In this document: piece by piece, positions 1,494 to 62,979 of the stretch | How the letters are laid out: every line of letters starts with the position of its first letter | Numbering within the stretch: the stretch's first letter is position 1 | IMG/VR virus record: IMGVR_UViG_3300021399_004696 | DNA: 64,000 nt | Reading direction: 5' to 3' (one strand) | From: an uncultured virus (IMG/VR IMGVR_UViG_3300021399_004696) | Lineage: Duplodnaviria > Heunggongvirae > Uroviricota > Caudoviricetes | Notes under the pieces: generated by a model | What the model was told of the DNA's origin: nothing | Seen by the model: the letters and a program-made list of their open reading frames with translations, nothing else | Databases searched by the model: none | Position numbers and translations under genes: made by a program

Positions 1494-2231
1494 ATGCACA
1501 ATTTTAAGAAAGTTATCGGAATGTCGGTTTTAGCAAGTATTTTGCTTATGGGCTGCAGTGCAACCGAACCTACAGCTTCATTGGCGCCAACAGACTCTTC
1601 TGCTGGGGTAGAAGGGACAGCAATCGAGACAAGCGCAGTAGCAGAGACTACAGGGGTAGAGAACGTATCTGACTTGTCAGGTTATACCTTAGATGAAGGG
1701 TTTATGCCGTTCAGCTCAATTACTATTAACGGGACTGAGTACGCGTTCCCTGCAGCTTACAGCACGCTGGCAGAAGTTTTTCCTCTTAACGCCGAAATTA
1801 TGGGTGAATTTGCTCCTAACGGGTTGTACCCCGGAATGGAAGTAGCGTCTTATGTAACGTCTGATGACGGAGCAACACCGATCTATCCCGGTATTACGAT
1901 CTCTGTCGGAAATTATTATCAGGATATGTCCGGCGGCGACACTATCGCTATAGAGGATGGTCTGGTAAGGCATATTATCATTAATACGTGGGGAGACGAG
2001 GGTACCGATTTCGAGATCATCATTCCAGGCGGCGGAAGCTTGGGCATGTCAGTTGATGAGATCGTAGAGCTTTACGGCGAGCCTTCTGAGGATAATATCC
2101 ACGATTACGAAGAGGGCGGTTGTGTATATTGTTATCCCGTATATTCCGAAGCTGACGAGAATCGTGCGATTTTTACTACTTTTACGTTCTTGAACGATCA
2201 GGTCGTAGGCATTGATCTTGAGTGGGTTTAA
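1494..2231 (+). CDS. lipoprotein, paralog of 5360..6064
   Basis: Lipobox LLMGC; shares PGGGxLGMS..EIVxLYGE and VVGIDLEW with 5360..6064. Confidence 0.75.
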   Translation: MHNFKKVIGMSVLASILLMGCSATEPTASLAPTDSSAGVEGTAIETSAVAETTGVENVSDLSGYTLDEGFMPFSSITINGTEYAFPAAYSTLAEVFPLNAEIMGEFAPNGLYPGMEVASYVTSDDGATPIYPGITISVGNYYQDMSGGDTIAIEDGLVRHIIINTWGDEGTDFEIIIPGGGSLGMSVDEIVELYGEPSEDNIHDYEEGGCVYCYPVYSEADENRAIFTTFTFLNDQVVGIDLEWV

Positions 2232-3465
2232 CATTCAGATACCGACCACTGTTCGAAGTGCTATGACGGCGTTAAAGAAGCAGGGGTATCAGGTATACGT
2301 GGTAGGTGGTGCAGTCAGGGATTGCGTTTTAGGTAAAGAGCCCCATGACTGGGACCTTGCTACTAATGCTGAGCCCGAACTTGTTAAAGAATGTTTTTCT
2401 AAAACCATTGACACAGGGTTAAAGCATGGTACGGTTACAGCGGTTATTGACGAATCACTTATTGAGATCACTACCTTCAGGACTGAAGGTAAATATTCAG
2501 ACGGCAGACATCCTGATTATGTTCGTTTTGTCGGAGATATTAAAGACGATCTGTTCAGGAGAGATTTTACTATCAACGCAATGGCTATTGATTATCAAGG
2601 GCGAATTGTCGACCCGTACGGAGGTCTGACCGACATTGAAGCAAAAAGGATTCGTTGTGTAGGCAATCCTCACGATCGATTTAGGGAAGATGCGCTTCGT
2701 ATGTTGAGAGCGCTAAGATTTGAGTCGACTTTGGGCTTTTCTCTTGACGATTCGGTAAAGGCAGCGATCAAACAGGATTTATCGCTTCTCAGTGCTACCG
2801 TATCTAAGGAAAGAGTCAGGGAAGAGCTTTGTAAGATGATCAAGGCTCCTAAGGCTTCGACCGGGTATAAAGATGCTGCCGAGCTTGGCGTGTTAAGCGA
2901 AATACATCCGATACTGGGGCGTTTGAGCAGCAATAGCCCGTGCCTGAAATATTTGGATGAAGCTCCCGAGGATCTTCAGATCCGTTGGGCAATACTTTTA
3001 CAAGAGCTTTGTTTTGCATATTCGGCTAAGGACGTACTGGCCTGCCTGCGTTTTTCATATGAAGATATGCACGGAGTTTGTGAATATATAAAATATTGCG
3101 ATTGTGTTGACATGTCTCTAAAAGAGGCCCGAAGATTTGCAGCTGACCACAACAAAGATTTTCTGCGCGGGCTGGCAGTCACACAAAGAGCTCACGGGCT
3201 TGTAACTACCCCCGGATATTGCAGTCAGGCTGTCGCAAAAGCTTGGGCGGCGATAAAAGACCACACAGCCATTAAGATGAAAGACCTGCTCATTGACGGG
3301 AATGACCTGATACAAATGGGTTATCAGGGCAAAGAAGTAGGGGATATGCTGAAGGATCTGTATGACGATTGTCTTGAAGAGCCTTCACACAATGAAAGAG
3401 AGTATCTGCTTTCTGTCGCAGAGGCGTGCCGTAAAAGGCCGGCAGAGCCTGACAGAACTTTATAA
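2212..3465 (+). CDS. cca: class II tRNA nucleotidyltransferase (CCA-adding enzyme family)
   Basis: VGGAVRD, DWDLAT, RRDFTINAM, DPYGG, EDALRMLRALRF motifs; start uncertain; ends in DRTL. Confidence 0.9.
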   Translation: MILSGFNIQIPTTVRSAMTALKKQGYQVYVVGGAVRDCVLGKEPHDWDLATNAEPELVKECFSKTIDTGLKHGTVTAVIDESLIEITTFRTEGKYSDGRHPDYVRFVGDIKDDLFRRDFTINAMAIDYQGRIVDPYGGLTDIEAKRIRCVGNPHDRFREDALRMLRALRFESTLGFSLDDSVKAAIKQDLSLLSATVSKERVREELCKMIKAPKASTGYKDAAELGVLSEIHPILGRLSSNSPCLKYLDEAPEDLQIRWAILLQELCFAYSAKDVLACLRFSYEDMHGVCEYIKYCDCVDMSLKEARRFAADHNKDFLRGLAVTQRAHGLVTTPGYCSQAVAKAWAAIKDHTAIKMKDLLIDGNDLIQMGYQGKEVGDMLKDLYDDCLEEPSHNEREYLLSVAEACRKRPAEPDRTL

Positions 3466-4812: not shown

Positions 4813-4889
4813 CGCGGAGAGGTGCTAATGGTGGCATTCCGGGCTCATAACCCGCGAGGTTGCAGGTTCGAATCCTGCCTCCGCAACCA
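4813..4889 (+). tRNA. initiator tRNA-fMet(CAT)
   Basis: C1:A72 mismatch, GGG/CCC anticodon stem with CTCATAA loop, GGTTCGAATCC, CCA. Confidence 0.9.
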
Positions 4890-7779: not shown

Positions 7780-8769
7780 ATGTACAGATCAATAGACTTA
7801 TTTGCGGGTATTGGCGGTATCCGCAAAGGTTTTGATAATGCTTTTGGGAAAGACATCAAAACCGTTTTTGTCAGTGAATGGGATGAACACGCCCAGAAAA
7901 CATATAAACTGAACTATCAAGATGACTTTGATATAGCAGGGGATATAACCAAGATCTCAGCAGACGAAGTCCCTGAGTTTGATATCTGTCTGGCCGGATT
8001 TCCATGTCAGGCGTTCTCGATGGCGGGGTCGCATATGGGGTTCAACGATAATTTTAAAGGCATGACCCGAGGTACCTTATTCAGGGAAGTTGTCCGGATA
8101 TGTGAACAACACAAGCCGAAAGTGATCTTTTGTGAGAACGTTAAGGGGCTGGTACACCACGATAAGGGCAGAACATTCAAAGTTATCAAAGGAGCTTTTG
8201 AAGAGATAGGTTATACCCTTTTTTGTAAGATCCTGAACAGCAAGGATTTTGGGGTGCCTCAGAACCGTGAGCGTATATACATGGTCGCGTTTAGAAACGA
8301 TCTGGGCATAAATGATTTTCATTTCCCTGAAGGTAGCCATAAAAATGTTTGTATCAGAGATATCCTTGAAGAGGCTCCGATCGACCCGAAGTATTATCTG
8401 TCTGATGTATATGTGGAAACATTGAAAAAGCATCGCGCAAGACATGAGGCTGCCGGACATGGTTTCGGGTATGTTATCCGCGATCTTGATGATATTGCCG
8501 GAACGATTGTTTGTGGTGGTATGGGTCGTGAAGGTAATCTTATCATAGACCATCGTGAACATAGCATGATTCCTACAACGCACATCAAAGGCGAGATCAA
8601 TAAAGAAGATATCAGGAAGATGACACCGAGAGAATGGGCCAGACTTCAGGGTTTTCCTGACGATTTTAAGATCGAACTTGCAGATACTCACATGTATAAG
8701 CAGTTTGGTAACAGCGTAACGGTCAATGTTATCGAGGCCATAGCAAAAGAGATAAAGAAAGTCTTATGA
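7780..8769 (+). CDS. C5-cytosine DNA methyltransferase, M.HpaII-like (predicted CCGG)
   Basis: FAGIGG, GFPCQ, ENV, QNRER, YKQFGNSV; variable region HGFGY...GGMGRE...PTTHIKGEIN...RKMTPREWARLQGFP resembles M.HpaII as recalled. Confidence 0.9.
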   Translation: MYRSIDLFAGIGGIRKGFDNAFGKDIKTVFVSEWDEHAQKTYKLNYQDDFDIAGDITKISADEVPEFDICLAGFPCQAFSMAGSHMGFNDNFKGMTRGTLFREVVRICEQHKPKVIFCENVKGLVHHDKGRTFKVIKGAFEEIGYTLFCKILNSKDFGVPQNRERIYMVAFRNDLGINDFHFPEGSHKNVCIRDILEEAPIDPKYYLSDVYVETLKKHRARHEAAGHGFGYVIRDLDDIAGTIVCGGMGREGNLIIDHREHSMIPTTHIKGEINKEDIRKMTPREWARLQGFPDDFKIELADTHMYKQFGNSVTVNVIEAIAKEIKKVL

Positions 8770-10037
8770 ACTGGAGATTAAACAAAGGCGATTGGGCGGA
8801 AGCCTACGTGTTCTGTAAGCTTTTAGCTGACGGGCGTATATATGCGGGTGACAAGGATCTGCAAAAGATCGCTGATGTTTATATGGACATAATCAAAGTT
8901 ATAAGAAAAAATGCGGGCAAAGATGCGGAATACCTGCGTCAGGCCCGCTATGTCGTGGCCTCCGAAGACGGCGTTGATTTTGTAACAGTTGCTTTAGATG
9001 AGTTTGAAAACGCCACGCAAAATCTCAAAGTCCGTATCACCGAAGGTGGGCAGAGCAGAGCTTTTGATATCCCTGAAGCCCAGGATTTTCTTTCTAATAA
9101 ATTACATATTAATAATATAAAAGAGAAGTGCGTTGCTGACGCGTCTGATGATAAGACAGACATCTTGGTAGAAGTTTTGAACAGTACGGACGGCAGCAGG
9201 GAGAAGGTCGGATTTTCCATAAAATCCCATTTCGGAAGTCCTGCTACGTTGTTTAATTGTTCTCAGGCGTCTAAGCTGGTGTATAAGATAAACGGGTGCG
9301 ACGAACATACAATGTACTTGCTCAACAGCATGAAAAACTCAGCGGGAGGGGCCGATGTGGACGCCAGAGTGCAATACATAGCCCAAAGCCCTTCTTTATC
9401 TTTAGAATTTCTCGGAAGTAAGATCATAAAGAATCAGTTTTACGGTGATCAGAAAGAGACTGGCGAGTTCTTCAGATGGAATCTGGAGCATTATGACGGG
9501 CGTATGCTCGATGTTTTCAGTTCCATGCTTTTATCAAGTTATGGGTATTACGGCGAACGGTCCGGCTCGTCTATGAACGAAGTGGTTGAAGCCGTAGCAA
9601 GCAGAAATCCGCTTCAGGTGCATAACCCCCGTTCAGTATATGAAGCAAAGTTTAAGGACTTCCTTTATAATGCTTTTGCGGGATTGACCGCATCTAAGAA
9701 GTGGAACGGGGTCCGTAAGATAAACGGCGGTTATATAGATGTTAAAAAAGACGGAGAGATCCTTTATTACAGGGCTGTCTCAGATGACCAGTTTACATCA
9801 TATCTTTTTAACAGCGTCCGTTTAGAACGTCCTGAACACGGGTGCATCTGTAAATTGAAGATCGCAGAGGCCGAGCAAAAACTTTCAGGTATTCCTATTC
9901 CGGCGACAGTTTTAGAGGAAGCTTCCAGGAGTGCCAGAAAGAAAGGCGATTACGGGTATGTCTATAAAGATACCGAATGGTATGACGGGAATCCGTATTG
10001 TATAGACCTTAATTATTCCTTCCGTTTCAAAAAGTGA
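8766..10037 (+). CDS. HpaII-family type II restriction endonuclease
   Basis: N-terminal NKGDWAEAY..KLL.DG.IYAGD, KTDI...GFSIKS...TLFN motifs; 4-nt overlap with the MTase gene. Confidence 0.8.
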   Translation: MNWRLNKGDWAEAYVFCKLLADGRIYAGDKDLQKIADVYMDIIKVIRKNAGKDAEYLRQARYVVASEDGVDFVTVALDEFENATQNLKVRITEGGQSRAFDIPEAQDFLSNKLHINNIKEKCVADASDDKTDILVEVLNSTDGSREKVGFSIKSHFGSPATLFNCSQASKLVYKINGCDEHTMYLLNSMKNSAGGADVDARVQYIAQSPSLSLEFLGSKIIKNQFYGDQKETGEFFRWNLEHYDGRMLDVFSSMLLSSYGYYGERSGSSMNEVVEAVASRNPLQVHNPRSVYEAKFKDFLYNAFAGLTASKKWNGVRKINGGYIDVKKDGEILYYRAVSDDQFTSYLFNSVRLERPEHGCICKLKIAEAEQKLSGIPIPATVLEEASRSARKKGDYGYVYKDTEWYDGNPYCIDLNYSFRFKK

Positions 10038-10148
10038 ATTATTAGTGAATTATATTTAGTAAAAAGCTAAATATCAATAACGTTTTATTGTAATTTTTAT
10101 GCCCCGGTGCTATTATCCGGATAAGAAAAAGCAAAGGGGAAATTGCTT

Positions 10149-10541
10149 ATGAAACAGGAGCCGGAGGGTAGCTACATCGATAATGATAATATCGGTGAAG
10201 TGATAAGACAACTAAGGCAGGAGAGAGGCCTCAGCATACAGGAATTGGCTTCCTTGACAGAGTATTCATATAATTACATAAACGGTATCGAGACCGGGCG
10301 TTATCAGCGGATCTCACTAAAATGCCTCAAACGGATTGCTACGGCACTCGGCGTGGAATATGTTGAACTTTTATCTCCCGAACCGTCTGCAGCGGAAGCT
10401 CCCGAACAGCTAACGACATTAACCTTGACTCAAGTGTTAGCCTTGCTTACATCCTTAAATGATCTGGATCTTCAGATCGTTATCCAGAAAGTAAGAGAAC
10501 TTCAGACTCTCCGAAAAAGAGAACGAGAGAACGGGCAATAA
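10149..10541 (+). CDS. XRE-family HTH regulator
   Basis: IRQLRQERGLSIQELA...IETG...SLKCLKRIATALGV. Confidence 0.85.
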   Translation: MKQEPEGSYIDNDNIGEVIRQLRQERGLSIQELASLTEYSYNYINGIETGRYQRISLKCLKRIATALGVEYVELLSPEPSAAEAPEQLTTLTLTQVLALLTSLNDLDLQIVIQKVRELQTLRKRERENGQ

Positions 10542-10616
10542 CATAACTGATGTACCAAAAAAGCCTCAAAACCCGATAAAAAAGAACAAAGCTCTAAACA
10601 AATATTCGAAAAACCG

Positions 10617-10935
10617 TGGCGTAAAAATGGCGTAAAGTACAAACGTTCTGTTTTGTAAACGCTTTATTTGCAGGCGTTTCCAGCTCCGCTTTTTATTTTA
10701 TGAACATTATGAACAAAGAACAAATGTTCTATTCTTGATGATCTTCGGCGGGTCTTTATAATTTGTTATTGGCCGATGTATCTTGGTATTTCTTTATTTT
10801 GCAAGGATTTAGAGTTTTTAGAACAATTTTGCCAAAAGTCCGTAAATTACCATATTTTATTATACTTTCACGGGTAGATGGCGTAAAAATGGCGTAAAAG
10901 TTATCTACATTCTTATTAACATTATTTTGGCGTAA
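10617..10935. repeat. integrase arm-type direct repeats (attP-like region)
   Basis: TGGCGTAAAAATGGCGTAAA at 10617 and 10879, TGGCGTAA at 10928, in non-coding DNA beside the integrase 3' end. Confidence 0.65.
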
Positions 10936-11146
10936 TTTTTCGAGGTCACAGCAAAAAGCCATTTTTGAAAAAAGTGAAACAATTGTCCTTGCTGCGTTTA
11001 TGGCAGATCTTTGCTGAATATCTGTTCAGTATATTACGTTCTTAGCCGAATAATGTTCATAAATTTGTTTCTCACAAAATTTTCCGCAAAAATAAGGCCG
11101 GAGATCTCCGACCTTACGGGCAAAATTTTTCGTTTCTTCTGATGCG

Positions 11147-12358
11147 TTACGACAGCTTTCTTCTTTTCTTTGCGGGCAGGGGTTCCGCTCCGAACAGGTT
11201 CATTGCGTCAAAGAGGTCCTTGTCATCGACATGGACATACAGATCCATCGTAACCGCGAGGGAGGAGTGACCGAGGATCTTTTGGAGAACTTTCGGTTCA
11301 ACGCCTTTCTTGATCGCTCTGGTAGCAAAAGTGTGTCTCAGATCGTGCAAGCTCAACCTGTCTATCCCCGGGATATCTTTGATTATATTTTTCAGCACGC
11401 TGTTATATGAGGCACTGGTTGCGGGGGCTTTCCCATCATTTCTTACAAATAGCAGCGAGTCGCCCTTAAAAGTAACTTTACCTCTGTTATAGTCCAGATA
11501 TGTGAAAGTTTCTTGACTGAGAGGGCCGTCCTGCATATACCTTGATAAACGCTCATCAGAGATCTTTTTAGCTATCTCGTACGCCCTTTGAGTCATCGGT
11601 ACGACACGATTGCCGGCGGGCGTTTTAGGGCCGTTTACGACCCATTTCTTGCACGCCGTATCATAATACAGATTTTTATTGACACGGATCGTTCGGTTAT
11701 ACAGATCGACATCCGCGAAGGTCAGTCCGCGAAGCTCGCTTATACGAAGCCCCGTATCGAGCAGGAATATAAAATGTTCATAGTAGTTACTATATACAGC
11801 CAACTCTTCAAACATTTTCTGCTGGGATTCATTCATATATCTTACCTTAAGCGGATTAGTCCTCAGAGCTGTAGGGAGGTACAGGTTAGCAGCGGGGTCA
11901 CTCTGGATCACGCCGTTTGAACGCGCAGCTTCAAACATCATCCGCCCCGTAGTCAGGATACCTGACACGGTACCGGACGAGAGACGCTCTGCGCACTGTT
12001 TAAGGATCTGCTGCAAGTGGATCGGTTTTACATCTTCCATCTGCATATCTCCGATCGCGTCGTGATAATAATTCTTATAGCGGGAGCGGTGCTGATTTAT
12101 CGTTTGGGGGCGTCTTCCGTAAAGGTGGTATTCCACCCAACGGTCAAACCACTCATCGACGGTCATGGCAGTAAAGGAACCTTTTCGGAACTCCGATTCT
12201 TTCTGAGCATCATAGAGCCATCGGGCAGCTTCGGGAAGGGAACTGAAGTACTTACTGATCCTCTTACCGTACGGAACGACCAAGCGGGCGCAGTACCGGC
12301 CGTCTTTTCTTTGAGACAGCCCGGGGCCGAGTTCCTTTCCTTTAAGATTCTTTCCCAT
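11147..12358 (-). CDS. int: tyrosine recombinase / integrase
   Basis: TGLRISE, KT, HDLRHTFAT, LGHS and Y catalytic motifs; N-terminal arm-binding domain. Confidence 0.95.
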   Translation of the reverse strand: MGKNLKGKELGPGLSQRKDGRYCARLVVPYGKRISKYFSSLPEAARWLYDAQKESEFRKGSFTAMTVDEWFDRWVEYHLYGRRPQTINQHRSRYKNYYHDAIGDMQMEDVKPIHLQQILKQCAERLSSGTVSGILTTGRMMFEAARSNGVIQSDPAANLYLPTALRTNPLKVRYMNESQQKMFEELAVYSNYYEHFIFLLDTGLRISELRGLTFADVDLYNRTIRVNKNLYYDTACKKWVVNGPKTPAGNRVVPMTQRAYEIAKKISDERLSRYMQDGPLSQETFTYLDYNRGKVTFKGDSLLFVRNDGKAPATSASYNSVLKNIIKDIPGIDRLSLHDLRHTFATRAIKKGVEPKVLQKILGHSSLAVTMDLYVHVDDKDLFDAMNLFGAEPLPAKKRRKLS

Positions 12359-29004: not shown

Positions 29005-29049
29005 GTAACACCCGTTCTCCGGGTGTTTTTCAGTGTCCCCTTGTATCAT
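29005..29049 (+). promoter_or_regulatory. GTAACAC box plus CCGGG-N20 promoter of nrdD
   Basis: GTAACAC 29005, CCGGG 29019, TATCAT 29044. Confidence 0.75.
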
Positions 29050-33797: not shown

Positions 33798-33828
33798 CCG
33801 GGCTTTATCTTTCTTAACGTGGGATAAT
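33798..33828 (+). promoter_or_regulatory. CCGGG-N20 promoter overlapping a hairpin
   Basis: CCGGG 33798, GATAAT 33823. Confidence 0.7.
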
Positions 33829-37162: not shown

Positions 37163-38221
37163 ATGAAAGACTGTGTATTGAACGAATTTGTATGTTTAGT
37201 AGGTATACCGGGCTCCGGAAAAAGCACTTGGGCTAAGAATAAAATAGCTGAAGATCCTTCGTATGTCTGGCTGTCCTCCGATAGCATAAGGCAGGAGCAT
37301 CCGACTTGGGACAACGGACAGATCTTTGAATACATGAAAAAGATGTCCATTAAGCTTATATGCGAAGGGAAATCGGTTATCTACGACGCGACTAACCTGA
37401 ACTTTAAGCTCAGGCACGCTTTAAGAAAGACTTTAGATAAGGCTTATCATAAAGGTGCGTTGTTTGGTACCAGATGTATCCTATTTGCAACACCTGAATA
37501 TATCTGCAGGGAGCGTAATAGTATGCGGGAAGGTAACGCCCGTGTTCCTGAAAATGTTATTACAAAATATCTCAAATGTTTTACTCCGCCTATGTCTTTT
37601 GAGGGCTGGGGGCGTATTGAGATCGAATATACGCACAATAAAAAAAATGAATGGGCCGACTTGTTTTGTAATGAAAACGGGATACTGGACACGTTTGATC
37701 AAGAGAATCCGCATCACGAGCTTTCTTTAGGCGAGCACATGAACGAAACTGCCAAAATCGCTTCGCATTTATCGTCTCTTTATGCGGAGACCGACAGTCA
37801 AATTCGCACCCCCGAAATTTTTTTGGCCGCCTTATATCACGACATAGGTAAGGTCCCGACTAAGACTTTCATTAATTGCAAAGGTGAAAAGACCGAAGAA
37901 GCGCATTATTACGGGCATGAGGGTTATGGAGCGTATATGTATGTAATACATATGCTTAAAAACTGGGAATACGCAGCCAATTCCATACCGAGCGGCCCTA
38001 ATACAACTACCATAGTAGATAAAGAGATTGTTGATCACATACTCATACCGGCTTTTTATATAAGCCAGCATATGAGACCTTACATAGCTTGGGAGACAAG
38101 TGACAAAGCTAAAGACAGAGACTCGAAGATCATCCCCGAATGGGATATGAAGGCGTTGGAGATACTGCATGAAGCAGATGTTAAAGCACATAGGCTCGGA
38201 GGCCCGGAACGTGACTTGTAA
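37163..38221 (+). CDS. P-loop polynucleotide-kinase-like domain fused to HD domain, C-terminus ERDL
   Basis: GIPGSGKST, SSDSIR, YDATNL; NPHH..LGEH, LYHDIGK, HYYGHE, LHEAD. Confidence 0.85.
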   Translation: MKDCVLNEFVCLVGIPGSGKSTWAKNKIAEDPSYVWLSSDSIRQEHPTWDNGQIFEYMKKMSIKLICEGKSVIYDATNLNFKLRHALRKTLDKAYHKGALFGTRCILFATPEYICRERNSMREGNARVPENVITKYLKCFTPPMSFEGWGRIEIEYTHNKKNEWADLFCNENGILDTFDQENPHHELSLGEHMNETAKIASHLSSLYAETDSQIRTPEIFLAALYHDIGKVPTKTFINCKGEKTEEAHYYGHEGYGAYMYVIHMLKNWEYAANSIPSGPNTTTIVDKEIVDHILIPAFYISQHMRPYIAWETSDKAKDRDSKIIPEWDMKALEILHEADVKAHRLGGPERDL

Positions 38222-38591
38222 TAATGATAAGATCGGCAGAAACTATCTTCAGGTTCAAAAATTTTCATTGATCCCGAAATATTATTACATCTTTGTGGAT
38301 ACCGTTGAAGACGAAGGTGCCCGAGTGTTAAGCGCCACAGACGGGCTGCGGTACCATTTGATCGGTTGTTTTGCAAGTGAAGAACAGTCTCCTTATGTCT
38401 ATTCGATCGTTAAGATCCCTAAAAACAAAAAGACCCAAAATCTTTTTCTGTCGGCTATGAACAGGTTATATAACAGTATGTGTTTGGCCGACGGTTTAAC
38501 ATATTGTGAAGTTTGCAAGACTTTTCATAACATCCTTCAAACGCCCGACCGGTTCCCTGAGATCAACGACATTCTTGAAGGCAACGAGTAA
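38169..38591 (+). CDS. hypothetical protein
   Basis: ORF between neighbours; true start probably downstream. Confidence 0.5.
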   Translation: MKQMLKHIGSEARNVTCNNDKIGRNYLQVQKFSLIPKYYYIFVDTVEDEGARVLSATDGLRYHLIGCFASEEQSPYVYSIVKIPKNKKTQNLFLSAMNRLYNSMCLADGLTYCEVCKTFHNILQTPDRFPEINDILEGNE

Positions 38592-38650
38592 CACATTTCT
38601 TGTTTTAGCACTGAATAGATACCGTATGCTAAAAGAAGGAGGAGACGTTT

Positions 38651-39319
38651 ATGGACGATACTAAACTGCATGATAAATATGACGTAGTCCGCTATGAAGA
38701 AGTAGAGTGGGAAAAGCGTTATAAGGTTATTGATAAAGTTACCGGTGAGACGATCGACAATGCGAATGGTGCCGGATTTACCAGCAGGCACGCAGCTTGG
38801 GCAGCCATAACATATAAAGAGCACGCCCGAATTAGAAACGAACGTTTCGATAAGATCAAAGCATTTAAAGAATATCAGGATCAAGAGCGGCCTAAATATT
38901 TTGAAGAATTGCGCAAAAGGGCTAATCAGGTTCGCAAATGCGCTCCTCGCATTAACGAAATATTCAGTCTGGCGGCAGAGTGTGAAAAAATAGGTATAAT
39001 TCTACCTAATTCATTTACGATCGATGATGCAAACGGGCAGACTTATACTTATAAGTTCCATATCGATAAGAAGTGTGTTGAGTTTCTTGCTAATGAAGAT
39101 CAAGCGTTTGTTTTCAATCTCGATACGCAAAAGGCGGTATATCCGACTAAAGGGTTTGCTACTAAGGCTGAGTGGATAAAAGCTATAGAAGATGCAAAAG
39201 CTTTTGTACGGAATTACGGTGGAGCAGAAGAGCAATTTTATAAATCTTTTGACACCAATCTTCAGATACCTAAGCAAAGAAAAACACGGAACGAACCTAA
39301 CGACGATAAAGGCCTCTAA
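38651..39319 (+). CDS. orphan, C-terminus DKGL
   Basis: AAGGAGG SD. Confidence 0.75.
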   Translation: MDDTKLHDKYDVVRYEEVEWEKRYKVIDKVTGETIDNANGAGFTSRHAAWAAITYKEHARIRNERFDKIKAFKEYQDQERPKYFEELRKRANQVRKCAPRINEIFSLAAECEKIGIILPNSFTIDDANGQTYTYKFHIDKKCVEFLANEDQAFVFNLDTQKAVYPTKGFATKAEWIKAIEDAKAFVRNYGGAEEQFYKSFDTNLQIPKQRKTRNEPNDDKGL

Positions 39320-39336
39320 CGGGGCCTTTTGTAATT

Positions 39337-39367
39337 CCGGGTGTTTTTGGTTTTTGTTTGCTACGTT
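39337..39367 (+). promoter_or_regulatory. CCGGG-N20 promoter of the RNA ligase operon
   Basis: CCGGG 39337, TACGTT 39362, just after a hairpin terminator at 39308-39330. Confidence 0.65.
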
Positions 39368-39385
39368 ATAGGTGGAGGTGAATTT

Positions 39386-40510
39386 ATGAATCAGAACTCA
39401 AAACTATGCGTGTTCATTTCTGAGCACCCGAACAATTGGGGAAAACTACTTTCAGAAAAAAGGATAAGATCGAGAATTAAAGGCAATCTCTGCATTTTTA
39501 ATTATCTTGCTGGAGCGGATTTCTTTGACGAGATCGTAAGAGAAGCGCGCGGGATCATCATTGACCTCGACAGTCTTGAAGTAGTCTGCTGGCCGTTTAC
39601 AAAGTTCGGCAACTGGAACGATCCGTATGTCGATAAGATCGACTGGGCATCAGCTAAGGTGCAGGAAAAGATCGACGGGTCTATCGTTAAATGTTATTTT
39701 TATGGAGGGGAATGGCATTGGGCGTCAAATGCTCATATCGACGCGGCAGATGCTCAGATTGACGGCCTTACAAATCATTCATTTCAGGATCTGATTGAGT
39801 GGGCCGTTAACTATCCCGAAGTTCAGAAGGTGCTGAGCAACACTGAAGATACCTATATTTTCGAGTTGACTTCGCCTTGGAACAGGGTCGTCATACCCCA
39901 GACTAAGACTCTGTTGACTCTTACCGGCATCAGGAATAATAAGACCGGTGAGGAGTATACATATAACGGAACTTTTAATAAGCCTGATGAGTATCCTCTT
40001 ACTTCTTTTGAGGATTGTGTCAAGATGCTCGCTACTTTTAACAAAGGGGCTGACATCAAACACGAAGGTTTTGTAGTTGTCGATAAGGACTTCCATCGCA
40101 TTAAGATCAAGACTGCCGAATATTTCGAATGGCATCACGTTTGGAATAACGGGCTCGGTATATCAAAAAAGCGTGTTGTTAAAATGCTGATGGAAGAAGA
40201 TGCGGATATGATCGAACGTGTAAGTAAGGTTTATCCTCATGCGCATCCTGTAATAGAGCACTATAAAAGTAGCATAGTGGGTCTTACGGAAAAGATCCAG
40301 GCTTTAATGAACGAAGCACGTGCGCTTTATACGGGCGACAACAGGAGAGAGCTTGTTGAAAAGTATAAGGGCAATAGCTTTACGGAGTTTATCTTTCTGG
40401 CTTTAGACCACCCCGAAGAAACCGCATCGGATTTTTTAAGCAAGCTTACGATCGGCAAGCTTTGCGATCTGATCCCCGATTATGAAACAGGAGGTGCCGA
40501 TAATGCCTGA
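39386..40510 (+). CDS. T4 Rnl1-family RNA ligase
   Basis: EARGII, PFTKFGN, EKIDGS (motif I), YIFELTSPWN, EGFVV, RIKIK. Confidence 0.88.
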   Translation: MNQNSKLCVFISEHPNNWGKLLSEKRIRSRIKGNLCIFNYLAGADFFDEIVREARGIIIDLDSLEVVCWPFTKFGNWNDPYVDKIDWASAKVQEKIDGSIVKCYFYGGEWHWASNAHIDAADAQIDGLTNHSFQDLIEWAVNYPEVQKVLSNTEDTYIFELTSPWNRVVIPQTKTLLTLTGIRNNKTGEEYTYNGTFNKPDEYPLTSFEDCVKMLATFNKGADIKHEGFVVVDKDFHRIKIKTAEYFEWHHVWNNGLGISKKRVVKMLMEEDADMIERVSKVYPHAHPVIEHYKSSIVGLTEKIQALMNEARALYTGDNRRELVEKYKGNSFTEFIFLALDHPEETASDFLSKLTIGKLCDLIPDYETGGADNA

Positions 40511-46136: not shown

Positions 46137-46167
46137 CCGGGCTTCGCTTCTTTTAGTCTGCGATAAT
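46137..46167 (+). promoter_or_regulatory. CCGGG-N20 promoter
   Basis: CCGGG 46137, GATAAT 46162. Confidence 0.75.
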
Positions 46168-46209
46168 CTAAGTATAAGAAGAACACAAGATATTAAAGGA
46201 GGCGTTTTC

Positions 46210-50427: not shown

Positions 50428-50467
50428 ATATAAAAAGTCTGAAAACGCCGTGTTTTAGCGTGTTTTG

Positions 50468-50498
50468 CCGGGCTTACAACCTCTTATTCTGCGATAAT
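50468..50498 (+). promoter_or_regulatory. CCGGG-N20 promoter of the PARP gene
   Basis: CCGGG 50468, GATAAT 50493. Confidence 0.75.
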
Positions 50499-50537
50499 CT
50501 AAGCATAGAAGAACAGAAGATATTAAAGGAGGTTTTT

Positions 50538-52040
50538 ATGCGCAACATCGTTATCAGCAGCCAGAATAAAGGTGAGCTTTATCGCGGAACTGTCGAGTTT
50601 GAAGAGAGTGCTATCTATCATCTTATCGGTGAGCAGCTTCTTAAGGTAGCGGATAAGTTGCCTGATACTGTAAGCGTAGATCTCGGAGAGGATTCCATGA
50701 CATTCAAGTGTGGTGTCAGGGGCCATTACACAAAGAACGGTGTGGAAATGCCTTCCATGTATGTTACCGAGACTTGGAACTCTACGTGGCGCATTCCCAG
50801 AAACGAGATGTACGAGGATAAGTATCTTACTTGTGTCAATCCCGAATCAAACAATTATAAGTTTTATTGGCTTAGGCCCGACACTAATGGTGTGGGTGCT
50901 ACATACGGGCGAATCGGAAGTGAGAGGGGAGAGGCTTTCGGAACAAAAGACCTGATGACTCCTTATCCGCTTCACATGTTCTGGATTAGATATTTTGAAA
51001 AGATCTCTAAGGGTTATATCGATCAGACGGATGTATATCTCAACTATGAAAAGCCGGAAGAGGTCAAGCCTGCAGACAAGGCCGAAGAGGAAGTTAAGAA
51101 GGTTAAGGTAAATGAGGCGTCTCGTAAGCTTTATGATATCCTTCGTGCTTGCAGCCGTCAGTACGTCAGTGAGAGAGTTGCAGTTGATGTAGATAAGATC
51201 ACATATGCACAGTATAAGAAGTCCAGAGAGCTTCTTGACGATCTTAAGGCTAAGAATGGCAATGCAGACGATCTTATGAAAGTGGACGAGTTTAACAAGA
51301 TCTTAACTGAACTCCTGGCAGTCGTACCCAGAAAGACCAGAGATGTAAGATTGCAGTTAGCCAACCGCGCAAAGGATTACACTTCTATCCTTGACAGAGA
51401 AGAAAATCTCGTTAACGCTATGCAGGCCGTTGTAGGGTCGGTAAACGTTAAGACAACAGACGAGGAAAGCTTTGAGGGTATGGGTATCAAAGTATATCCT
51501 GCTACCGATAAGCAGAAGGAAGAGGTCTATAAGCACCTTGGAGACGGTCTTAAGGGCAAGGTAAAGAACGTATACCGTGTTATCCACAAGGCACAGAAGG
51601 CACGTTTCGACAAGTATCTTAAGGATAACAACATTCATCACGTCAAAGAGCTTTGGCATGGGTCCAGAACAGAGAATTGGTATTCGATCATCCTGAATTC
51701 TTTGTCTTTAACACCTAATGCCGCTATCACAGGTAAGATGTTTGGTAAGGGTATCTACTTTGCCCCTTCCGCACAGAAGTCTTTCGGATATACGTCTTGC
51801 TACGGTACTTATTGGGCGCATGGCCACTCAAATAGCGGATATATGGGGCTTTTTGCCACCGCATACGGAAAGCCTTATGACACATCATCAGCGCTTCCGC
51901 ACTTTGATAAGAGCGCTCTTCACAGGACAGGAAAGGATTGTGTTCATGCACATGCCGGAGCGAGTCTTAGGAATGACGAAATCATCTTCTATGATGAAAA
52001 TGCATGTCTTATAAACTACATTGTCGAGTTCGTAGCTTAA
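50538..52040 (+). CDS. WGR-like plus PARP catalytic domain ADP-ribosyltransferase
   Basis: NNYKFY...YGRIG (WGR-like); LWHGSR, GKMFGKGIYFA..AQKS.GY, LRNDEIIFY giving an H-Y-E triad. Confidence 0.88.
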   Translation: MRNIVISSQNKGELYRGTVEFEESAIYHLIGEQLLKVADKLPDTVSVDLGEDSMTFKCGVRGHYTKNGVEMPSMYVTETWNSTWRIPRNEMYEDKYLTCVNPESNNYKFYWLRPDTNGVGATYGRIGSERGEAFGTKDLMTPYPLHMFWIRYFEKISKGYIDQTDVYLNYEKPEEVKPADKAEEEVKKVKVNEASRKLYDILRACSRQYVSERVAVDVDKITYAQYKKSRELLDDLKAKNGNADDLMKVDEFNKILTELLAVVPRKTRDVRLQLANRAKDYTSILDREENLVNAMQAVVGSVNVKTTDEESFEGMGIKVYPATDKQKEEVYKHLGDGLKGKVKNVYRVIHKAQKARFDKYLKDNNIHHVKELWHGSRTENWYSIILNSLSLTPNAAITGKMFGKGIYFAPSAQKSFGYTSCYGTYWAHGHSNSGYMGLFATAYGKPYDTSSALPHFDKSALHRTGKDCVHAHAGASLRNDEIIFYDENACLINYIVEFVA

Positions 52041-52043
52041 CAG

Positions 52044-52075
52044 ACGAGGCCCTTCTTCGGAAGGGTCTTGTTTTT
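52044..52075 (+). terminator. intrinsic terminator
   Basis: GAGGCCCTTC-TTCG-GAAGGGTCTT followed by T-run. Confidence 0.8.
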
Positions 52076-52076
52076 G

Positions 52077-52107
52077 CCGGGCTTTTACCCTTTGGTTGTG
52101 AGACAAT
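52077..52107 (+). promoter_or_regulatory. CCGGG-N20 promoter
   Basis: CCGGG 52077, GACAAT 52102. Confidence 0.7.
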
Positions 52108-52137: not shown

Positions 52138-52455
52138 ATGGATGACAGAACGGTTATATTTTGTAATTTGTTGGCCCTTTTAGAAGCTTTGAAAGAAAAA
52201 CCGGATGTAGATCGCAAGACCCAACTTGCAGGCATTATAGATATTTTATCAGGTGTTTCCTTTGATCTGGACGATTGTGTTGATTGTATGGAACTTCTTC
52301 AACAAAGCGAAATAAATAAAGCTGAAAAAGAAGGGGCAGATAATAAGTGCTTGATTGAATTTCTTGGTGAAACACGGGAACAGTGCATATCAATTTTAGA
52401 CCAGATAGACGATCTGATTGAAAGGCTCGTTAACAAGCTTGACGATTTAATGTAA
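52138..52455 (+). CDS. hypothetical helical protein
   Basis: GGGGAG SD. Confidence 0.65.
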   Translation: MDDRTVIFCNLLALLEALKEKPDVDRKTQLAGIIDILSGVSFDLDDCVDCMELLQQSEINKAEKEGADNKCLIEFLGETREQCISILDQIDDLIERLVNKLDDLM

Positions 52456-52472
52456 CAATTCACGTTCTGGTG

Positions 52473-52501
52473 TTGAAAAGGGTAAAATCGTGTGTTAATA
52501 C
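52473..52501 (+). promoter_or_regulatory. SigA-like promoter upstream of the divergent sigma gene
   Basis: TTGAAA-17 bp-TAATAC. Confidence 0.45.
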
Positions 52502-52560
52502 AAAGACGTAGTGTAATAGTTTAAGGAATTGTTTCGACTAATACAAGGTGTGTGAACCAA

Positions 52561-53598
52561 ATGACATTAAATTGTAATGTTGCTTTACAGGACATCGAAA
52601 AACTGGTTGCGGTCAGTAAGAATGGAGAAATATCGGAGAAGGACTTTAACAGCGTAGGAGAACTGCGTAATCTTTCTCCTGATGAGTTGGAAGAATTATA
52701 CGACGTTGTTTCTCAGAAGTTTACTATCGTTTCAGACCCGGGTACAACAGAGGATGAATCAGATCTTGCTGACGGCAGCCTGGACAGTGTTACTATGTAC
52801 TTTAAAGAAATCGCCGGCTTCCCCTTATTGACCAGAGAGCAGGAAAAGGAGTATTTTACCCGCTATAGAGAGGGAGAGAAGGACCTCAGAGAGCTCCTTA
52901 TTACATCAAACTTAAAGCTCGTAGTGCCCGTAGCTAAGCAGTATCTTAATAACGGAGTCCCGCTGAACGATCTCATTCAGGAGGGCAACTGCGGACTTAT
53001 GACGGCTGTAGATAAATTTGATGTCAGTAAGGGTTTTAAGTTTTCGACGTATGCTCGTTGGTGGATTGTCCGCTATGTGAGGACATGTATTGCTGAAGCA
53101 GGCCGAACCATAAGGATTCCTCTTAACGTAGGAATTCTTTTAAATAAGATCAAATACGCAGAGCGTATGTTAACGCAGGAGTTTAACCGCCAGCCTACCG
53201 AAGAGGAATTGTCAAACAAGACCGGTATTCCGGAGGAAAAGATTCGTCTCATAAAGCAGAGTACCTTACAACCGCTGTCATTAGACACCCCCTTATCAGA
53301 TGAAGAAGGAGCCTGTACTATAGCTGACTTCATTCCGTATGACGGGGAAGAGCCTGACCAGGAAGCTAATCTTTATATATATAATCAGGATATGTCTGCT
53401 TTGTTAAGTCTGTTGACCGAAAAGGAATACGAAGTCCTTAAATACAGACTCGGTCTTGAAGGCGAGACGCCTCACACTTTAAAAGAAATAGGGAATTTGG
53501 TTGGTTTGAGTAACGAAAGAGTCCGTCAGATCGGGGCTAAAGCTATAAGAAAGCTTGGCAGATCTTCTTTAGCTAAAAGGCTGAAAGACTCTTATTAA
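52561..53598 (+). CDS. sigma-70 family sigma factor, divergent
   Basis: DSVTMYFKEI, SNLKLVV, DLIQEGNCGL, FSTYARWW, RTIRIP, TLKEIG..SNERVRQI. Confidence 0.92.
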   Translation: MTLNCNVALQDIEKLVAVSKNGEISEKDFNSVGELRNLSPDELEELYDVVSQKFTIVSDPGTTEDESDLADGSLDSVTMYFKEIAGFPLLTREQEKEYFTRYREGEKDLRELLITSNLKLVVPVAKQYLNNGVPLNDLIQEGNCGLMTAVDKFDVSKGFKFSTYARWWIVRYVRTCIAEAGRTIRIPLNVGILLNKIKYAERMLTQEFNRQPTEEELSNKTGIPEEKIRLIKQSTLQPLSLDTPLSDEEGACTIADFIPYDGEEPDQEANLYIYNQDMSALLSLLTEKEYEVLKYRLGLEGETPHTLKEIGNLVGLSNERVRQIGAKAIRKLGRSSLAKRLKDSY

Positions 53599-55633: not shown

Positions 55634-56578
55634 ATGAAGGTCATCAAGAATAATAAGAAGGGCTTTACTCTTATAGAGATAATGCTTGTTATTGCTATAA
55701 TTGTTATCCTGTCCGCGGGCGTTCTGGTTGGTGTTACGGACCGTATCCGTGCAGCCAGAGAAAAGCAGGCGGCCCTGCAGGCACACGAGAACTATTGGGA
55801 TATCGCCTATAGGCAGGTTGATGAAATCTTGAGAAGGCCGACAGACACTCCCGGTGGCGGAGGCGGTGCCGGCGGTGGTGGCGGTGCCGGTGGCGGAGGC
55901 GGTATCGGCGGCGGTGGCGGTACTAGTTCGGAGGATGACGATTACTGGTATCAGCAATATCTTAATCTTCTGAATGACCCTAATATTGTCATCGACTATG
56001 TAAGTGACGATTATCGTACGGTTCTCTGGCATTACAGATCGTCAGAGCCTACAAGCGCTCCTACATCAGCACCTACAAGCGCTCCTACATCAACACCTAC
56101 AAGTGCCCCTACATCAGCTCCTACGACTGCACCTACAAGCGCTCCGACATCAGCACCTACAACTGCTCCTACGAGTGCTCCCACAAGCGCTCCTACATCA
56201 GCTCCTACGACCGCACCTACGGTGGCTCCTACGGCGGTTCCTACGACAGCACCTTCGGACGATGATACACCCGTAACATATGACGGTGAGTTTGTTACAA
56301 GCGGTGGTACGACAGGTGTAAGAGGCATTACTCCGAATTCTGACGGTACCGTTACTCTTGAACTGCAGTATCAGTACAACACAGGTACTGTAAAGATCCG
56401 CCAGAATGATGACGGCACATACAGCATGTGGATCAATCCCGGTGATACAAACTTTATCGGTGCCGTTATCGGATATAACGCAGACAATCAGTGGTGCGCC
56501 ACTAACAGGTGGGTAAATCTCTCACCTACGGCCGTATCTCAGATGGAAGATGCATACGGCGTTTCATTTAGCGGGTAA
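55634..56578 (+). CDS. prepilin-type (type IV pilin N-terminal) protein with Gly-rich and Pro/Thr/Ser linker
   Basis: NNKKG|FTLIEIMLVIAIIVILS class III signal peptide. Confidence 0.85.
   Translation: MKVIKNNKKGFTLIEIMLVIAIIVILSAGVLVGVTDRIRAAREKQAALQAHENYWDIAYRQVDEILRRPTDTPGGGGGAGGGGGAGGGGGIGGGGGTSSEDDDYWYQQYLNLLNDPNIVIDYVSDDYRTVLWHYRSSEPTSAPTSAPTSAPTSTPTSAPTSAPTTAPTSAPTSAPTTAPTSAPTSAPTSAPTTAPTVAPTAVPTTAPSDDDTPVTYDGEFVTSGGTTGVRGITPNSDGTVTLELQYQYNTGTVKIRQNDDGTYSMWINPGDTNFIGAVIGYNADNQWCATNRWVNLSPTAVSQMEDAYGVSFSG
56048..56251 (+). repeat. 12-bp tandem repeat encoding 17 PT[S/T]A-like units
   Basis: Degenerate units such as CCTACAAGCGCT and CCTACATCAGCA. Confidence 0.9.
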
Positions 56579-61119: not shown

Positions 61120-61150
61120 CCGGGTGTTCTTGATTTAATCGTGAAATAAT
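61120..61150 (+). promoter_or_regulatory. CCGGG-N20 promoter
   Basis: CCGGG 61120, AATAAT 61145, after a terminator at 61083-61106. Confidence 0.75.
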
Positions 61151-61717: not shown

Positions 61718-61981
61718 ATGAAAAAAGAAAAAAGACAGGCTTACAAAATAAGATATTTATCAAAGATCCAGAACAAAAGACTGAAGACCTTGTTGTTTGC
61801 GCACAGCAGACGAATGGTTGGAGGTTTTACTTTAGGAGATTGTTTAGGGTTGGAGTATTACGAAGACGATAAAGCTTCGATCGAGTTCGATCCTAAGACC
61901 GGGGAGCCGGTTTGTAAATTTGCAGACGGGGATTCGGCGATCTCATATTTAGAAGAAATCAGAAGGAGGTGTTCGAGATGA
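61718..61981 (+). CDS. hypothetical protein
   Basis: GAGGAG SD; overlaps the sigma start. Confidence 0.6.
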   Translation: MKKEKRQAYKIRYLSKIQNKRLKTLLFAHSRRMVGGFTLGDCLGLEYYEDDKASIEFDPKTGEPVCKFADGDSAISYLEEIRRRCSR

Positions 61982-62979
61982 CCGAGTTGGCTGAAATTTT
62001 AAAGAAGGTTGTCAATAACACAATTAAGATGAAGGATCTTGAGCCTTTCGTTGAAGGTTTGGATGAAAAAGATTCCAAGGCTTTGTTCGATCTGCTCGTA
62101 GACAGGGGTATTGACATTATTGAAGAGGATGAGCCTTTGACATATACAGGCAATGACAGCAGCGTAGCCCAATATCTGAAGGAAATGGCACGCTATCCTC
62201 TGTTGACCCACGAGGAAGAAATTGACCTGGCAAACAGAGTTCAGGCCGGGGATGAAGAAGCTAAGGAGATCTTAGTTTGCAGCAATCTTCGTCTGGTTGT
62301 ATCCATTGCTAAGAAATATACTAACAGGGGTCTGCCTATCCTGGATCTCATACAGGAAGGAAATATAGGTCTTATGAAGGCTGTTTCTTACTTTGATCCA
62401 GAAAAAGGATTCCACTTCAGTACTTATGCTACCTGGTGGATCAGGCAGTCTGTTACCAGAGCTATTGCGGACCAGGCCAGAACGATCAGGATTCCTGTTC
62501 ATATGGTAGAGCAGATCAATAAGCTTGCCAGAACACAGAGAACTTTAACGCAGACCCTCGGCAGAGAGCCTACGATCGAAGAGCTTGCTGAAGCAACAGG
62601 GCATTCAATAGAAAAGATTCAGGACATCCAGAAAGTGTCTCAGGACCCCATCTCTTTGGATATGCCGGTCGGGGAAGACAAAGAAACACCTCTTTCCGAG
62701 TTTTTGAGTGTAAACGAAAGCACTTACAGTGCTCCGGATGAAGAAGCAAATCGAGAGGCGTTCAGAGAGGCGCTCAGTAAGAGTATGACTATTCTGTCCG
62801 AAAGAGAACAGATCATACTTAATCTGCGTTTCGGTCTGGATGACGGCAGATCGAGAACTTTGGAAGAAGTCGGTAACAGACTTGGAATAACCAGAGAAAG
62901 AGTCCGTCAGATAGAAGCAAAAGCTCTTAGAAAGCTTGGCAAGAATTCTCACGCAAGAATACTCCAGGGGTTCTATTAA
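61978..62979 (+). CDS. RpoD/SigA-like sigma factor with canonical regions 2 and 4
   Basis: SNLRLVVSIAKKY, DLIQEGNIGLMKAV, FSTYATWWIRQ, RTLEEVG..TRERVRQIEAKALRKL. Confidence 0.95.
   Translation: MTELAEILKKVVNNTIKMKDLEPFVEGLDEKDSKALFDLLVDRGIDIIEEDEPLTYTGNDSSVAQYLKEMARYPLLTHEEEIDLANRVQAGDEEAKEILVCSNLRLVVSIAKKYTNRGLPILDLIQEGNIGLMKAVSYFDPEKGFHFSTYATWWIRQSVTRAIADQARTIRIPVHMVEQINKLARTQRTLTQTLGREPTIEELAEATGHSIEKIQDIQKVSQDPISLDMPVGEDKETPLSEFLSVNESTYSAPDEEANREAFREALSKSMTILSEREQIILNLRFGLDDGRSRTLEEVGNRLGITRERVRQIEAKALRKLGKNSHARILQGFY

Follow-up and report, generated by a model that had tools for sequence, protein, structure and literature searches.

The 64-kilobase (kb) window analysed here, that is, the whole stretch of 64,000 nucleotides (nt) studied from IMG/VR record IMGVR_UViG_3300021399_004696, encodes two sigma factors related to RpoD, and it is the more divergent of the two, sigma-1, that concerns us. 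We read the element carrying it as a large phage-like element of the ruminant gut with two RpoD-derived sigma genes. A strong terminator hairpin (52042-52074), a promoter with a CCGGG box (52077), a small acidic gene (orf105) and the sigma-1 gene follow one another at the locus (Table 1). No terminator was found between orf105 and sigma-1 in 52440-52560 (z 0.30), a stretch that includes the spacer of 96-97 nt, and the two genes are apparently co-transcribed. In orf105, 13 of the 21 listed strain differences alter an amino acid. The database copy of the sigma-1 protein (P0001), carried on a contig of 198,822 base pairs (bp), begins at ATG 52561, and a related strain differs at 52555 and 52556, both of which precede this ATG. 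The window shows 64 kb of a contig that measures 199 kb or more, some 135 kb lying outside it.

Sigma-1 has the complete domain complement of its family, with Sigma70_r1_2, r2, r3 and r4 all above the Pfam gathering score. Region 1.2, typical of group 1 and 2 (RpoD-like) sigmas, is matched at residues 78-110 (PF00140, E 1.7e-9) and is followed in order by regions 2, 3 and 4 (PF04542, E 2e-17; PF04539, 6e-17; PF04545, 2e-13). The region 1.1 domain, PF03979, was unmatched at E up to 0.01; many Clostridia homologues of about 350 residues also lack PF03979, and the 75-residue N-terminus of sigma-1 aligns loosely with the SigA N-terminus of 8x6f. Solved SigA chains align with the protein over 270-344 residues (8x6f_E, E 9e-66; 7l7b_F). 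All 25 NCBIfam models among the matches listed score below their own curated cut-offs, the best being NF006666 (257.5 bits vs a cut-off of 572). The core-binding motif DLIQEGNxGL is intact (DLIQEGNCGL), and Y430, W433 and W434, which melt DNA, are kept (FSTYARWW). Strains from other ruminant studies carry the gene at about 96-99% nucleotide identity; three of the five listed differences inside it are synonymous, which is too few to carry weight (for strain variants X3, X5 and X7 the listing covers 40 of some 900 differences).

It is in the helices that read promoter DNA that sigma-1 departs from SigA. In E. coli numbering (the residue number in the 345-residue protein plus 266), the SigA alignment gives T432R, R436V, Q437R, A438Y, I439V, T440R, R441T, T583S, R584N and E591G. 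Region 2.4 reads FSTYARWWIVRYVRT (WWIVRYVRT) against FSTYATWWIRQAITR in the SigA homologues, and region 4.2 reads SNERVRQIGAKA (SNERVRQ) against TRERIRQIEAKA. The original prediction, made from the sequence alone, had named WWIVRYVRT in place of WWIRQAITR, SNERVRQ in place of TRERIRQ, the substitutions Q437R, T440R and R584N, and the retention of Y430, W433 and W434; alignment with SigA structures bears out each of these. A third altered helix was absent from it: region 3.0 reads IRIPLNVGILLNK against IRIPVHMVETINK, which amounts to H455N and E458I. E585, R586, R588 and Q589 are retained, and E585 is the sole survivor of the canonical promoter-reading set Q437/T440/H455/E458/R584/E585, the other five having become R/R/N/I/N. 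Some changes also lie within regions 2.1-2.3 (R385K, R397N, L402N, K414T). The residue roles at the -12 and -35 positions used here are those given in passages of PMC2613000, according to which genetics and structure have shown H455 and E458 to be the readers of the -14 G:C within the extended -10 element, and R584A moves the base preference at -31.

This combination of residues is peculiar to sigma-1 among the sequences searched. In the best 120 hits of a word-index search, region 2.4 is canonical or near-canonical in 119 (110 identical, seven with S at T440, one with H at Q437 and one not matched by the pattern), R584 is present in 119, and the exception in both cases is the window's own protein. 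A phmmer search of 1.84 billion representatives returned sigma-1 itself at 759 bits and its nearest relative at 271 bits and 45% identity, and the residue pattern was absent from the 149 other best hits; region 2.4 could not be matched in 11 of these, region 3.0 in 27 and region 4.2 in 30. The best relatives reach 45% identity in GTDB genomes and 41% in IMG/VR, and identity to bacterial primary sigmas is 40-50%. Among the other phage sigmas of IMG/VR, positions 440 and 441 are variable; R or K stands at 584 in all 18 viral sigma matches inspected (17 loci), and Q437 in all but one. That one, the L017 sigma of an unrelated viral contig (Table 1), shares R437 and N455 with sigma-1.

The changes are concentrated as well as numerous. 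Sigma-1 departs from the 119 homologues at 48 of the 140 columns conserved at 95% or more, and the altered columns make up 24/36 of those in residues 166-181, 188-199 and 316-325 vs 24/104 elsewhere (odds ratio 6.7, Fisher p 4e-6, a value that is somewhat flattering because the three segments were chosen after the list of changes had been seen). These segments are what textbooks call region 2.4, region 3.0 and the recognition helix of region 4.2; in region 2.4 ten such columns are altered, in addition to T440R. In the second sigma, sigma-2, 23 columns are altered, with no such concentration (5/36 vs 18/104, not significant). Sigma-2 is 42% identical to sigma-1 and has closer relatives of its own, the best at 66% identity on a 283-kb contig and at 49% in IMG/VR; it retains Q437, T440, H455, E458 and R584. 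Both sigmas sit on long branches in the tree (10 for sigma-1 and 3.56 for sigma-2, with a median of 0.17, so that sigma-1 is at about 60 times the median), and the placement of the two as phage paralogues is unsure because both branches are too long. From its sequence we infer that sigma-1 still functions as a sigma and has acquired a new promoter specificity.

The window also contains a distinctive class of promoters. Nearly all of its open reading frames (ORFs) lie on the plus strand, and CCGGG occurs 53 times on that strand and 37 times on the other (37 +/- 5 expected). Combined with a -10-like hexamer at a fixed distance, as CCGGG-N20-NAnnnT, it is found 27 times on the plus strand, the other spacings from 12 to 28 giving 0-12 hits (median 5); the stricter CCGGG-N20-NANAAT occurs 14 times on the plus strand and once on the minus strand, with a mean of 0.4 and a maximum of 4 in 100 Markov simulations. 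Among the 27 sites, 21 fall outside ORF calls, two (26262, 47853) within doubtful 5' ORF extensions and four inside genes (12321, 17130, 31574, 56865), and they mostly stand 7-60 nt upstream of start codons. With two blocks, a fixed spacing, a position on the gene strand and a place in front of genes, these sites have the make-up of sigma-dependent bipartite promoters, and the class heads 21-23 transcription units within the window. The promoter class already named by the original prediction is therefore real.

A base matrix was built from 23 of the sites (A-11 and T-7 being demanded by the search pattern). The consensus is T-N-CCGGG-Y-K-TTTT at -39 to -27, a fixed 20 bp, and (T/G)ATAAT. Upstream, T-39 occurs in 21 promoters and C at -38 in none, CCGGG occupies -37 to -33, C or T stands at -32 in 18, C-31 in three, and T in 14-17 at each position from -30 to -27. 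The -12 base is T in 13, G in seven, A in two and C in one, and the A-T-A-A-T that follows is matched in 23, 14, 17, 18 and 23 promoters, respectively. TG is present at -15/-14 in 9/23, including six of the seven with G-12. The whole box is centred near -32, the location of region 4 on ordinary promoters. Bases following the hexamer are conserved in the best promoters (33829, 46168, 50499, 54999 and others) as CTAAGTAT, CTAAGCAT or TTAAGTAT, and may be a discriminator or a start-site signal. Beyond the window, the CCGGG motif is at background in 85 viral loci that encode other sigmas, all with R or K at 584 (five single hits), the promoter pattern gave 0 hits in IMG/VR, and its one hit among metagenome contigs (L086) is a 4.6-kb piece of the same phage. 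In an RNA run (X14), 16 contigs match the window, six of them at 99% identity or more and with depths up to about 5; these are assembled contigs without starts or strand, and one of them begins at a CCGGG box itself (54967), as read-through or DNA carry-over.

A second upstream promoter element is GTAACAC, which occurs 14 times on the plus strand and twice on the minus strand. At 10 of the 14 sites a TATAAT-like hexamer follows after 29-32 bp, four of these with CCGGG and six without (18113, 20016, 31383, 38588, 45104, 60021); at two further sites, with CCGGG, the distance is 41 bp, and the remaining two have no clear hexamer. GTAACAC was rejected as a -35 element at normal spacing, there being no conservation 17 bp downstream. 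An unbiased k-mer search of the window for a third conserved upstream motif returned only CCGGG-related words and GTAACAC. Sigma-70-like sites were not enriched over shuffles (55 vs 41.8 +/- 8.1 in 20 kb), and the top non-coding canonical promoters, with extended -10 elements, are both in the restriction-modification island (7726, 10088).

We propose that sigma-1 reads the phage's own CCGGG promoters, a plausible and unproven reading to which we give a probability of roughly 45%. All three duplex-reading helices have been rewritten, namely those of region 2.4 (-12), region 3.0 (-13 to -15) and region 4.2 (-35), and the core-binding and DNA-melting parts have stayed as they were. E585 and R588 would go on reading G-33, a base present in 23/23 promoters; the loss of R584 would free -31, where C is found in only 3/23; new residues in or before the recognition helix would read CC/GG at -37 to -34; and the new arginines at 437 and 440 would tolerate or prefer G at -12, where the base is relaxed (T 13, G 7 of 23). 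Since the box is asymmetric (C-38 in 0/23) and its spacing rigid, the class suits one monomeric reader tied to the reader of the -10 element. Sigma-1 is the only protein seen in the window with an altered -35-reading helix, and as reader it requires no further protein; the background level of the motif in the 85 viral loci with ordinary sigmas also speaks for it. Lying behind a CCGGG promoter together with orf105, it would be under positive feedback, its first molecules being supplied either by read-through or by a weak promoter of host type.

Several observations weigh against this proposal. TG is used at -15/-14 in 9/23 promoters, although sigma-1 is without the TG readers H455 and E458; both are kept in sigma-2, and host SigA would be expected to keep them. 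The -10 half is near the canonical TATAAT, CCGGG itself is centred about 2.5 bp upstream of the TTGACA centre, and the segments of the Fisher test were, as said, set after the fact. GTAACAC shares its -10 type with or without CCGGG, which implies that other DNA-binding factors act on promoters of the CCGGG class. Two thirds of the genome lie outside the window, and no relatives of the element were found. The sigma-1 gene is downstream of a CCGGG promoter with no intervening terminator and its own host-type promoter is poor, so that a regulon run by sigma-1 alone lacks a clear starting point. This last point bears on the original prediction, which had placed a SigA-like TTGAAA-17-TAATAC directly upstream of the gene and envisaged a cascade from host SigA to sigma-1 to the CCGGG regulon. 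The two hexamers are there, but as a weak candidate: the -10 matches TATAAT at 3/6 positions, with C at -7 instead of T, and because of this the site was missed by both of two separate promoter scans. None of the four strain differences listed in the spacer before sigma-1 falls within the hexamers, for which the chance expectation is about 59%. A strict cascade would moreover be circular, because sigma-1 follows the CCGGG-driven orf105 without a terminator, and together with the poor SigA-like promoter and the TG in 9/23 this tells against the cascade as written. The accompanying claim, that the substitutions fit a promoter with a free -12 base and a non-TTGACA -35, holds in part, agreeing with G-33 and E585, with the loss of both C-31 and R584 and with the relaxed -12.

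The chief alternative, which we hold to be possible if somewhat doubtful, is that another phage protein, either a monomeric activator or a MotA/AsiA-like pair, reads CCGGG while host SigA or sigma-2 reads the -10 element, sigma-1 then being a product of the regulon that reads a different class of promoters, probably late and outside the window. The canonical -10 half and the TG in 9/23 promoters would be accounted for, as sigma-2 keeps Q437, T440, H455, E458 and R584, and a position behind a CCGGG promoter without a terminator is what one would expect of a middle-to-late switch gene. The GTAACAC element points to additional DNA-binding factors, and an unrecognised activator could hide in the window, since just 30/83 ORFs have a Pfam match (E <= 0.001), or beyond the 64 kb visible of at least 199 kb. 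Yet searches of 83 ORFs with Pfam and of 78 with PHROGs detected neither MotA nor AsiA nor any other activator family, although divergent forms would escape such searches, and the window offers no third upstream motif. G-12 in 7/23 promoters is unusual for a canonical sigma, the pairing of a kept G-33 with a kept E585 and of a lost C-31 with a lost R584 would be coincidence, and one unknown protein more is demanded than if sigma-1 itself is the reader.

It is improbable that sigma-1 is no longer a promoter-specific initiation factor at all, having become a decaying duplicate, a decoy for core polymerase or a binder of a host anti-sigma or regulator, in which last roles it would alter transcription with no promoter of its own to read. 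Such a fate could be read from the alteration of 48/140 highly conserved columns, some in regions 2.1-2.3, from the tree branch and from the failure to reach any curated RpoD cut-off (257.5 vs 572 bits), but the frame is open, all four domains score well, the core-binding motif and Y430/W433/W434 are intact, and the gene persists in other ruminant-study strains. Decay is also an unlikely source of the pattern because the changes cluster in the helices that read DNA (p 4e-6) instead of being evenly spread. Least credible of all is that CCGGG boxes serve chiefly as the 3' arm and U-tract of intrinsic terminators, or as another RNA-level signal, unrelated to sigma-1: a T-rich run does follow CCGGG (T in 14-17/23 at -30 to -27) and the box can pair with an upstream arm at 29019, 34222, 53614 and 63029, but most boxes are without a complementary arm, a separate strong terminator stands upstream of the box at 52077 and 61120, and the fixed 20-bp gap to NAnnnT (27 hits vs 0-12), like the preference for one strand and for places ahead of start codons, is a property of promoters.

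A bolder version of our proposal, which we consider very unlikely, is that sigma-1 and the CCGGG promoters form a natural orthogonal RpoD-derived pair, possibly coupled to methylation of the phage DNA. The CCGG site of an HpaII-type methylase encoded in the window (Table 1) is contained within every CCGGG box, and CCGG is commoner in the window than expected (209 vs 151 +/- 11), which means that it is not avoided. The -35 element would then bear 5-methylcytosine at -36 and opposite -35, and sigma-1 would favour methylated, i.e. phage, DNA, the phage thereby marking its own promoters, a logic that may be likened to the dependence of T4 on modified cytosine.

The window holds, in addition, nine transfer RNA (tRNA) genes and a CCA-adding enzyme, and Pfam and PHROGs searches (83 and 78 ORFs, respectively, all from the window) further identified a topoisomerase-like protein, NrdD, ThyX, an exonuclease, a polynucleotide kinase/HD protein, a T4-type RNA ligase, a RecD2-like helicase, a PARP-like protein, a pilin-like protein and an HpaII-type methylase and endonuclease adjoined by an XRE-type regulator and an integrase. 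The tRNA array, CCA-adding enzyme, kinase/HD protein and RNA ligase resemble a kit for tRNA supply and repair. Strains vary in the length of the repeat region of the pilin-like protein, with insertions and deletions of 3-24 nt. The start of the PARP-like ORF is probably further downstream than called, because promoter 50468 falls inside the ORF as called from the first GTG. Almost the same DNA is present in metagenomes of sheep, cattle and rumen, in 17 runs belonging to 12 studies, four of the runs having been checked. In a collection of phage records, no DNA match to the window was found and protein matches were all below 60% identity (best listed 44%), and the RecD2-like helicase used as a query of IMG/VR found no relative. 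The host is probably Clostridia-type, judging solely by the names of the nearest sigma homologues, and the element may be a plasmid instead of a phage, a reading that remains because the 64-kb window has no structural gene.

Table 1. Coordinates of the sigma-1 locus, its promoters and other features (window positions, except for the L017 sigma)
Feature	Position	Strand	Remarks
Sigma-1, divergent RpoD-like sigma factor	52561 (ATG)..53598	+	345 residues; alternative start GTG 52552
Region 2.4 codons of sigma-1	53056..53103	+	residues 166-181; T432R, R436V, Q437R, A438Y, I439V, T440R, R441T, others
Region 3.0 codons of sigma-1	53122..53157	+	residues 188-199; V454L, H455N, M456V, E458I, others; helix reading extended -10
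Region 4.2 recognition-helix codons of sigma-1	53506..53535	+	residues 316-325; V582L, T583S, R584N, I587V, E591G; E585/R586/R588/Q589 kept
CCGGG-N20-GACAAT promoter before orf105 and sigma-1	52077..52107	+	TG at -15/-14; follows terminator hairpin 52042-52074
orf105, small acidic protein of no known family	52138..52455	+	Pfam unmatched at E up to 1
TTGAAA-17-TAATAC, weak candidate host-type promoter	52473..52501	+	TGTG at -17 to -14
CCGGG-N20-TATCAT promoter just past sigma-1 stop codon	53614..53644	+	overlaps weak hairpin
Best-consensus CCGGG promoter, TTTTGCCGGGCTT-N17-GATAATCTAAGTAT	46137..46172	+	near-identical boxes at 33798, 50468
Sigma-2, second RpoD-like sigma	61969..62979	+	canonical WWIRQSVTR, PVHMVEQ, TRERVRQIE
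CCGGG-N20-AATAAT promoter heading operon with sigma-2	61120..61150	+	
PARP-like protein directly upstream of sigma operon	50460-52040		behind one of the top-consensus CCGGG promoters (50468)
Pilin-like protein	55634-56578		type IV pilin-like N-terminal methylation motif; Gly-rich and Pro-Thr/Ser repeats
HpaII-type methylase and endonuclease (CCGG)	7780..10037	+	PF00145 E 8e-99; PF09561 E 3e-61
Island of HpaII-type C5 methylase/endonuclease, XRE-type regulator and integrase	7780-12358		integrase on minus strand
tRNA array with CCA-adding enzyme, kinase/HD protein and T4-type RNA ligase	251-1363, 2212-3465, 37163-40510		8 tRNA genes plus one at 4813
L017 sigma, on an unrelated viral contig	2319-3134		WIRRNIMNY in region 2.4, IPNN in region 3.0, canonical SRERVRQ in region 4.2

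A rewired RpoD-like sigma beside a canonical copy, together with a non-TTGACA promoter class, makes it possible to test how specificity for the -35, -12 and extended -10 elements is re-coded, and may supply Firmicutes with an orthogonal sigma-promoter pair. The timing of genes in a large ruminant-gut phage of a kind not yet cultivable would be revealed as well. If another factor turned out to read CCGGG, the window would contain an undescribed activator system, along with a sigma acting on promoters yet to be identified.

Compared with bacterial SigA/RpoD (8x6f_E, 7l7b_F, 7ckq_F), sigma-1 has the same order of regions 1.2, 2, 3 and 4 and the same core-binding and melting residues, but it scores below the curated cut-offs, has no detected region 1.1, and has replaced Q437, T440, R441, H455, E458 and R584. 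The phage SPO1 reportedly uses host sigma-A for its early genes and then its own sigmas (gp28, then gp33/34), which recognise a -35 and a -10 of their own; a hand-over of this kind is the model that the original prediction had proposed. The SPO1 sigmas are small and only distantly related to RpoD, and the promoters they use differ in both halves; here the sigma is RpoD-like and the -10 is near TATAAT. In the middle promoters of T4, a MotA box replaces the -35 element and is combined with a canonical -10. The CCGGG class is similar in joining a canonical -10 to a non-TTGACA box at a fixed distance in many phage promoters. T4, however, re-uses the host sigma, which is remodelled by AsiA according to part of PMC7824862, whereas the present phage encodes a sigma with an altered region 4.2, and no MotA or AsiA homologue was found among the window ORFs.

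RpoD-like sigmas encoded by jumbo phages of group 2 are described in a section of Iyer et al. 2021 (PMC7824862); the present lineage was not found in the searches of IMG/VR or of the phage record collection, and the present phage differs from these in carrying one canonical and one rewired copy. According to the passages of PMC2613000 already referred to, sigma-70 mutants R584A/C, E585Q, R588H, Q437H and T440I shift preference at -31, -33 and -12. These engineered mutants concern the same positions as sigma-1 but are single laboratory substitutions, whereas the changes in sigma-1 are natural and number about 24 over three helices. Promoter-reading residues are, in the relevant part of PMC8407463, conserved across bacterial phyla even where the promoters differ. 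Keyword searches of open-access text found neither a published CCGGG promoter class nor an account of an RpoD-like sigma in which all three helices are rewired. RpoD-like phage sigmas and single specificity substitutions are thus already known; the rewiring of three helices and the CCGGG class are, within the literature searched, new.

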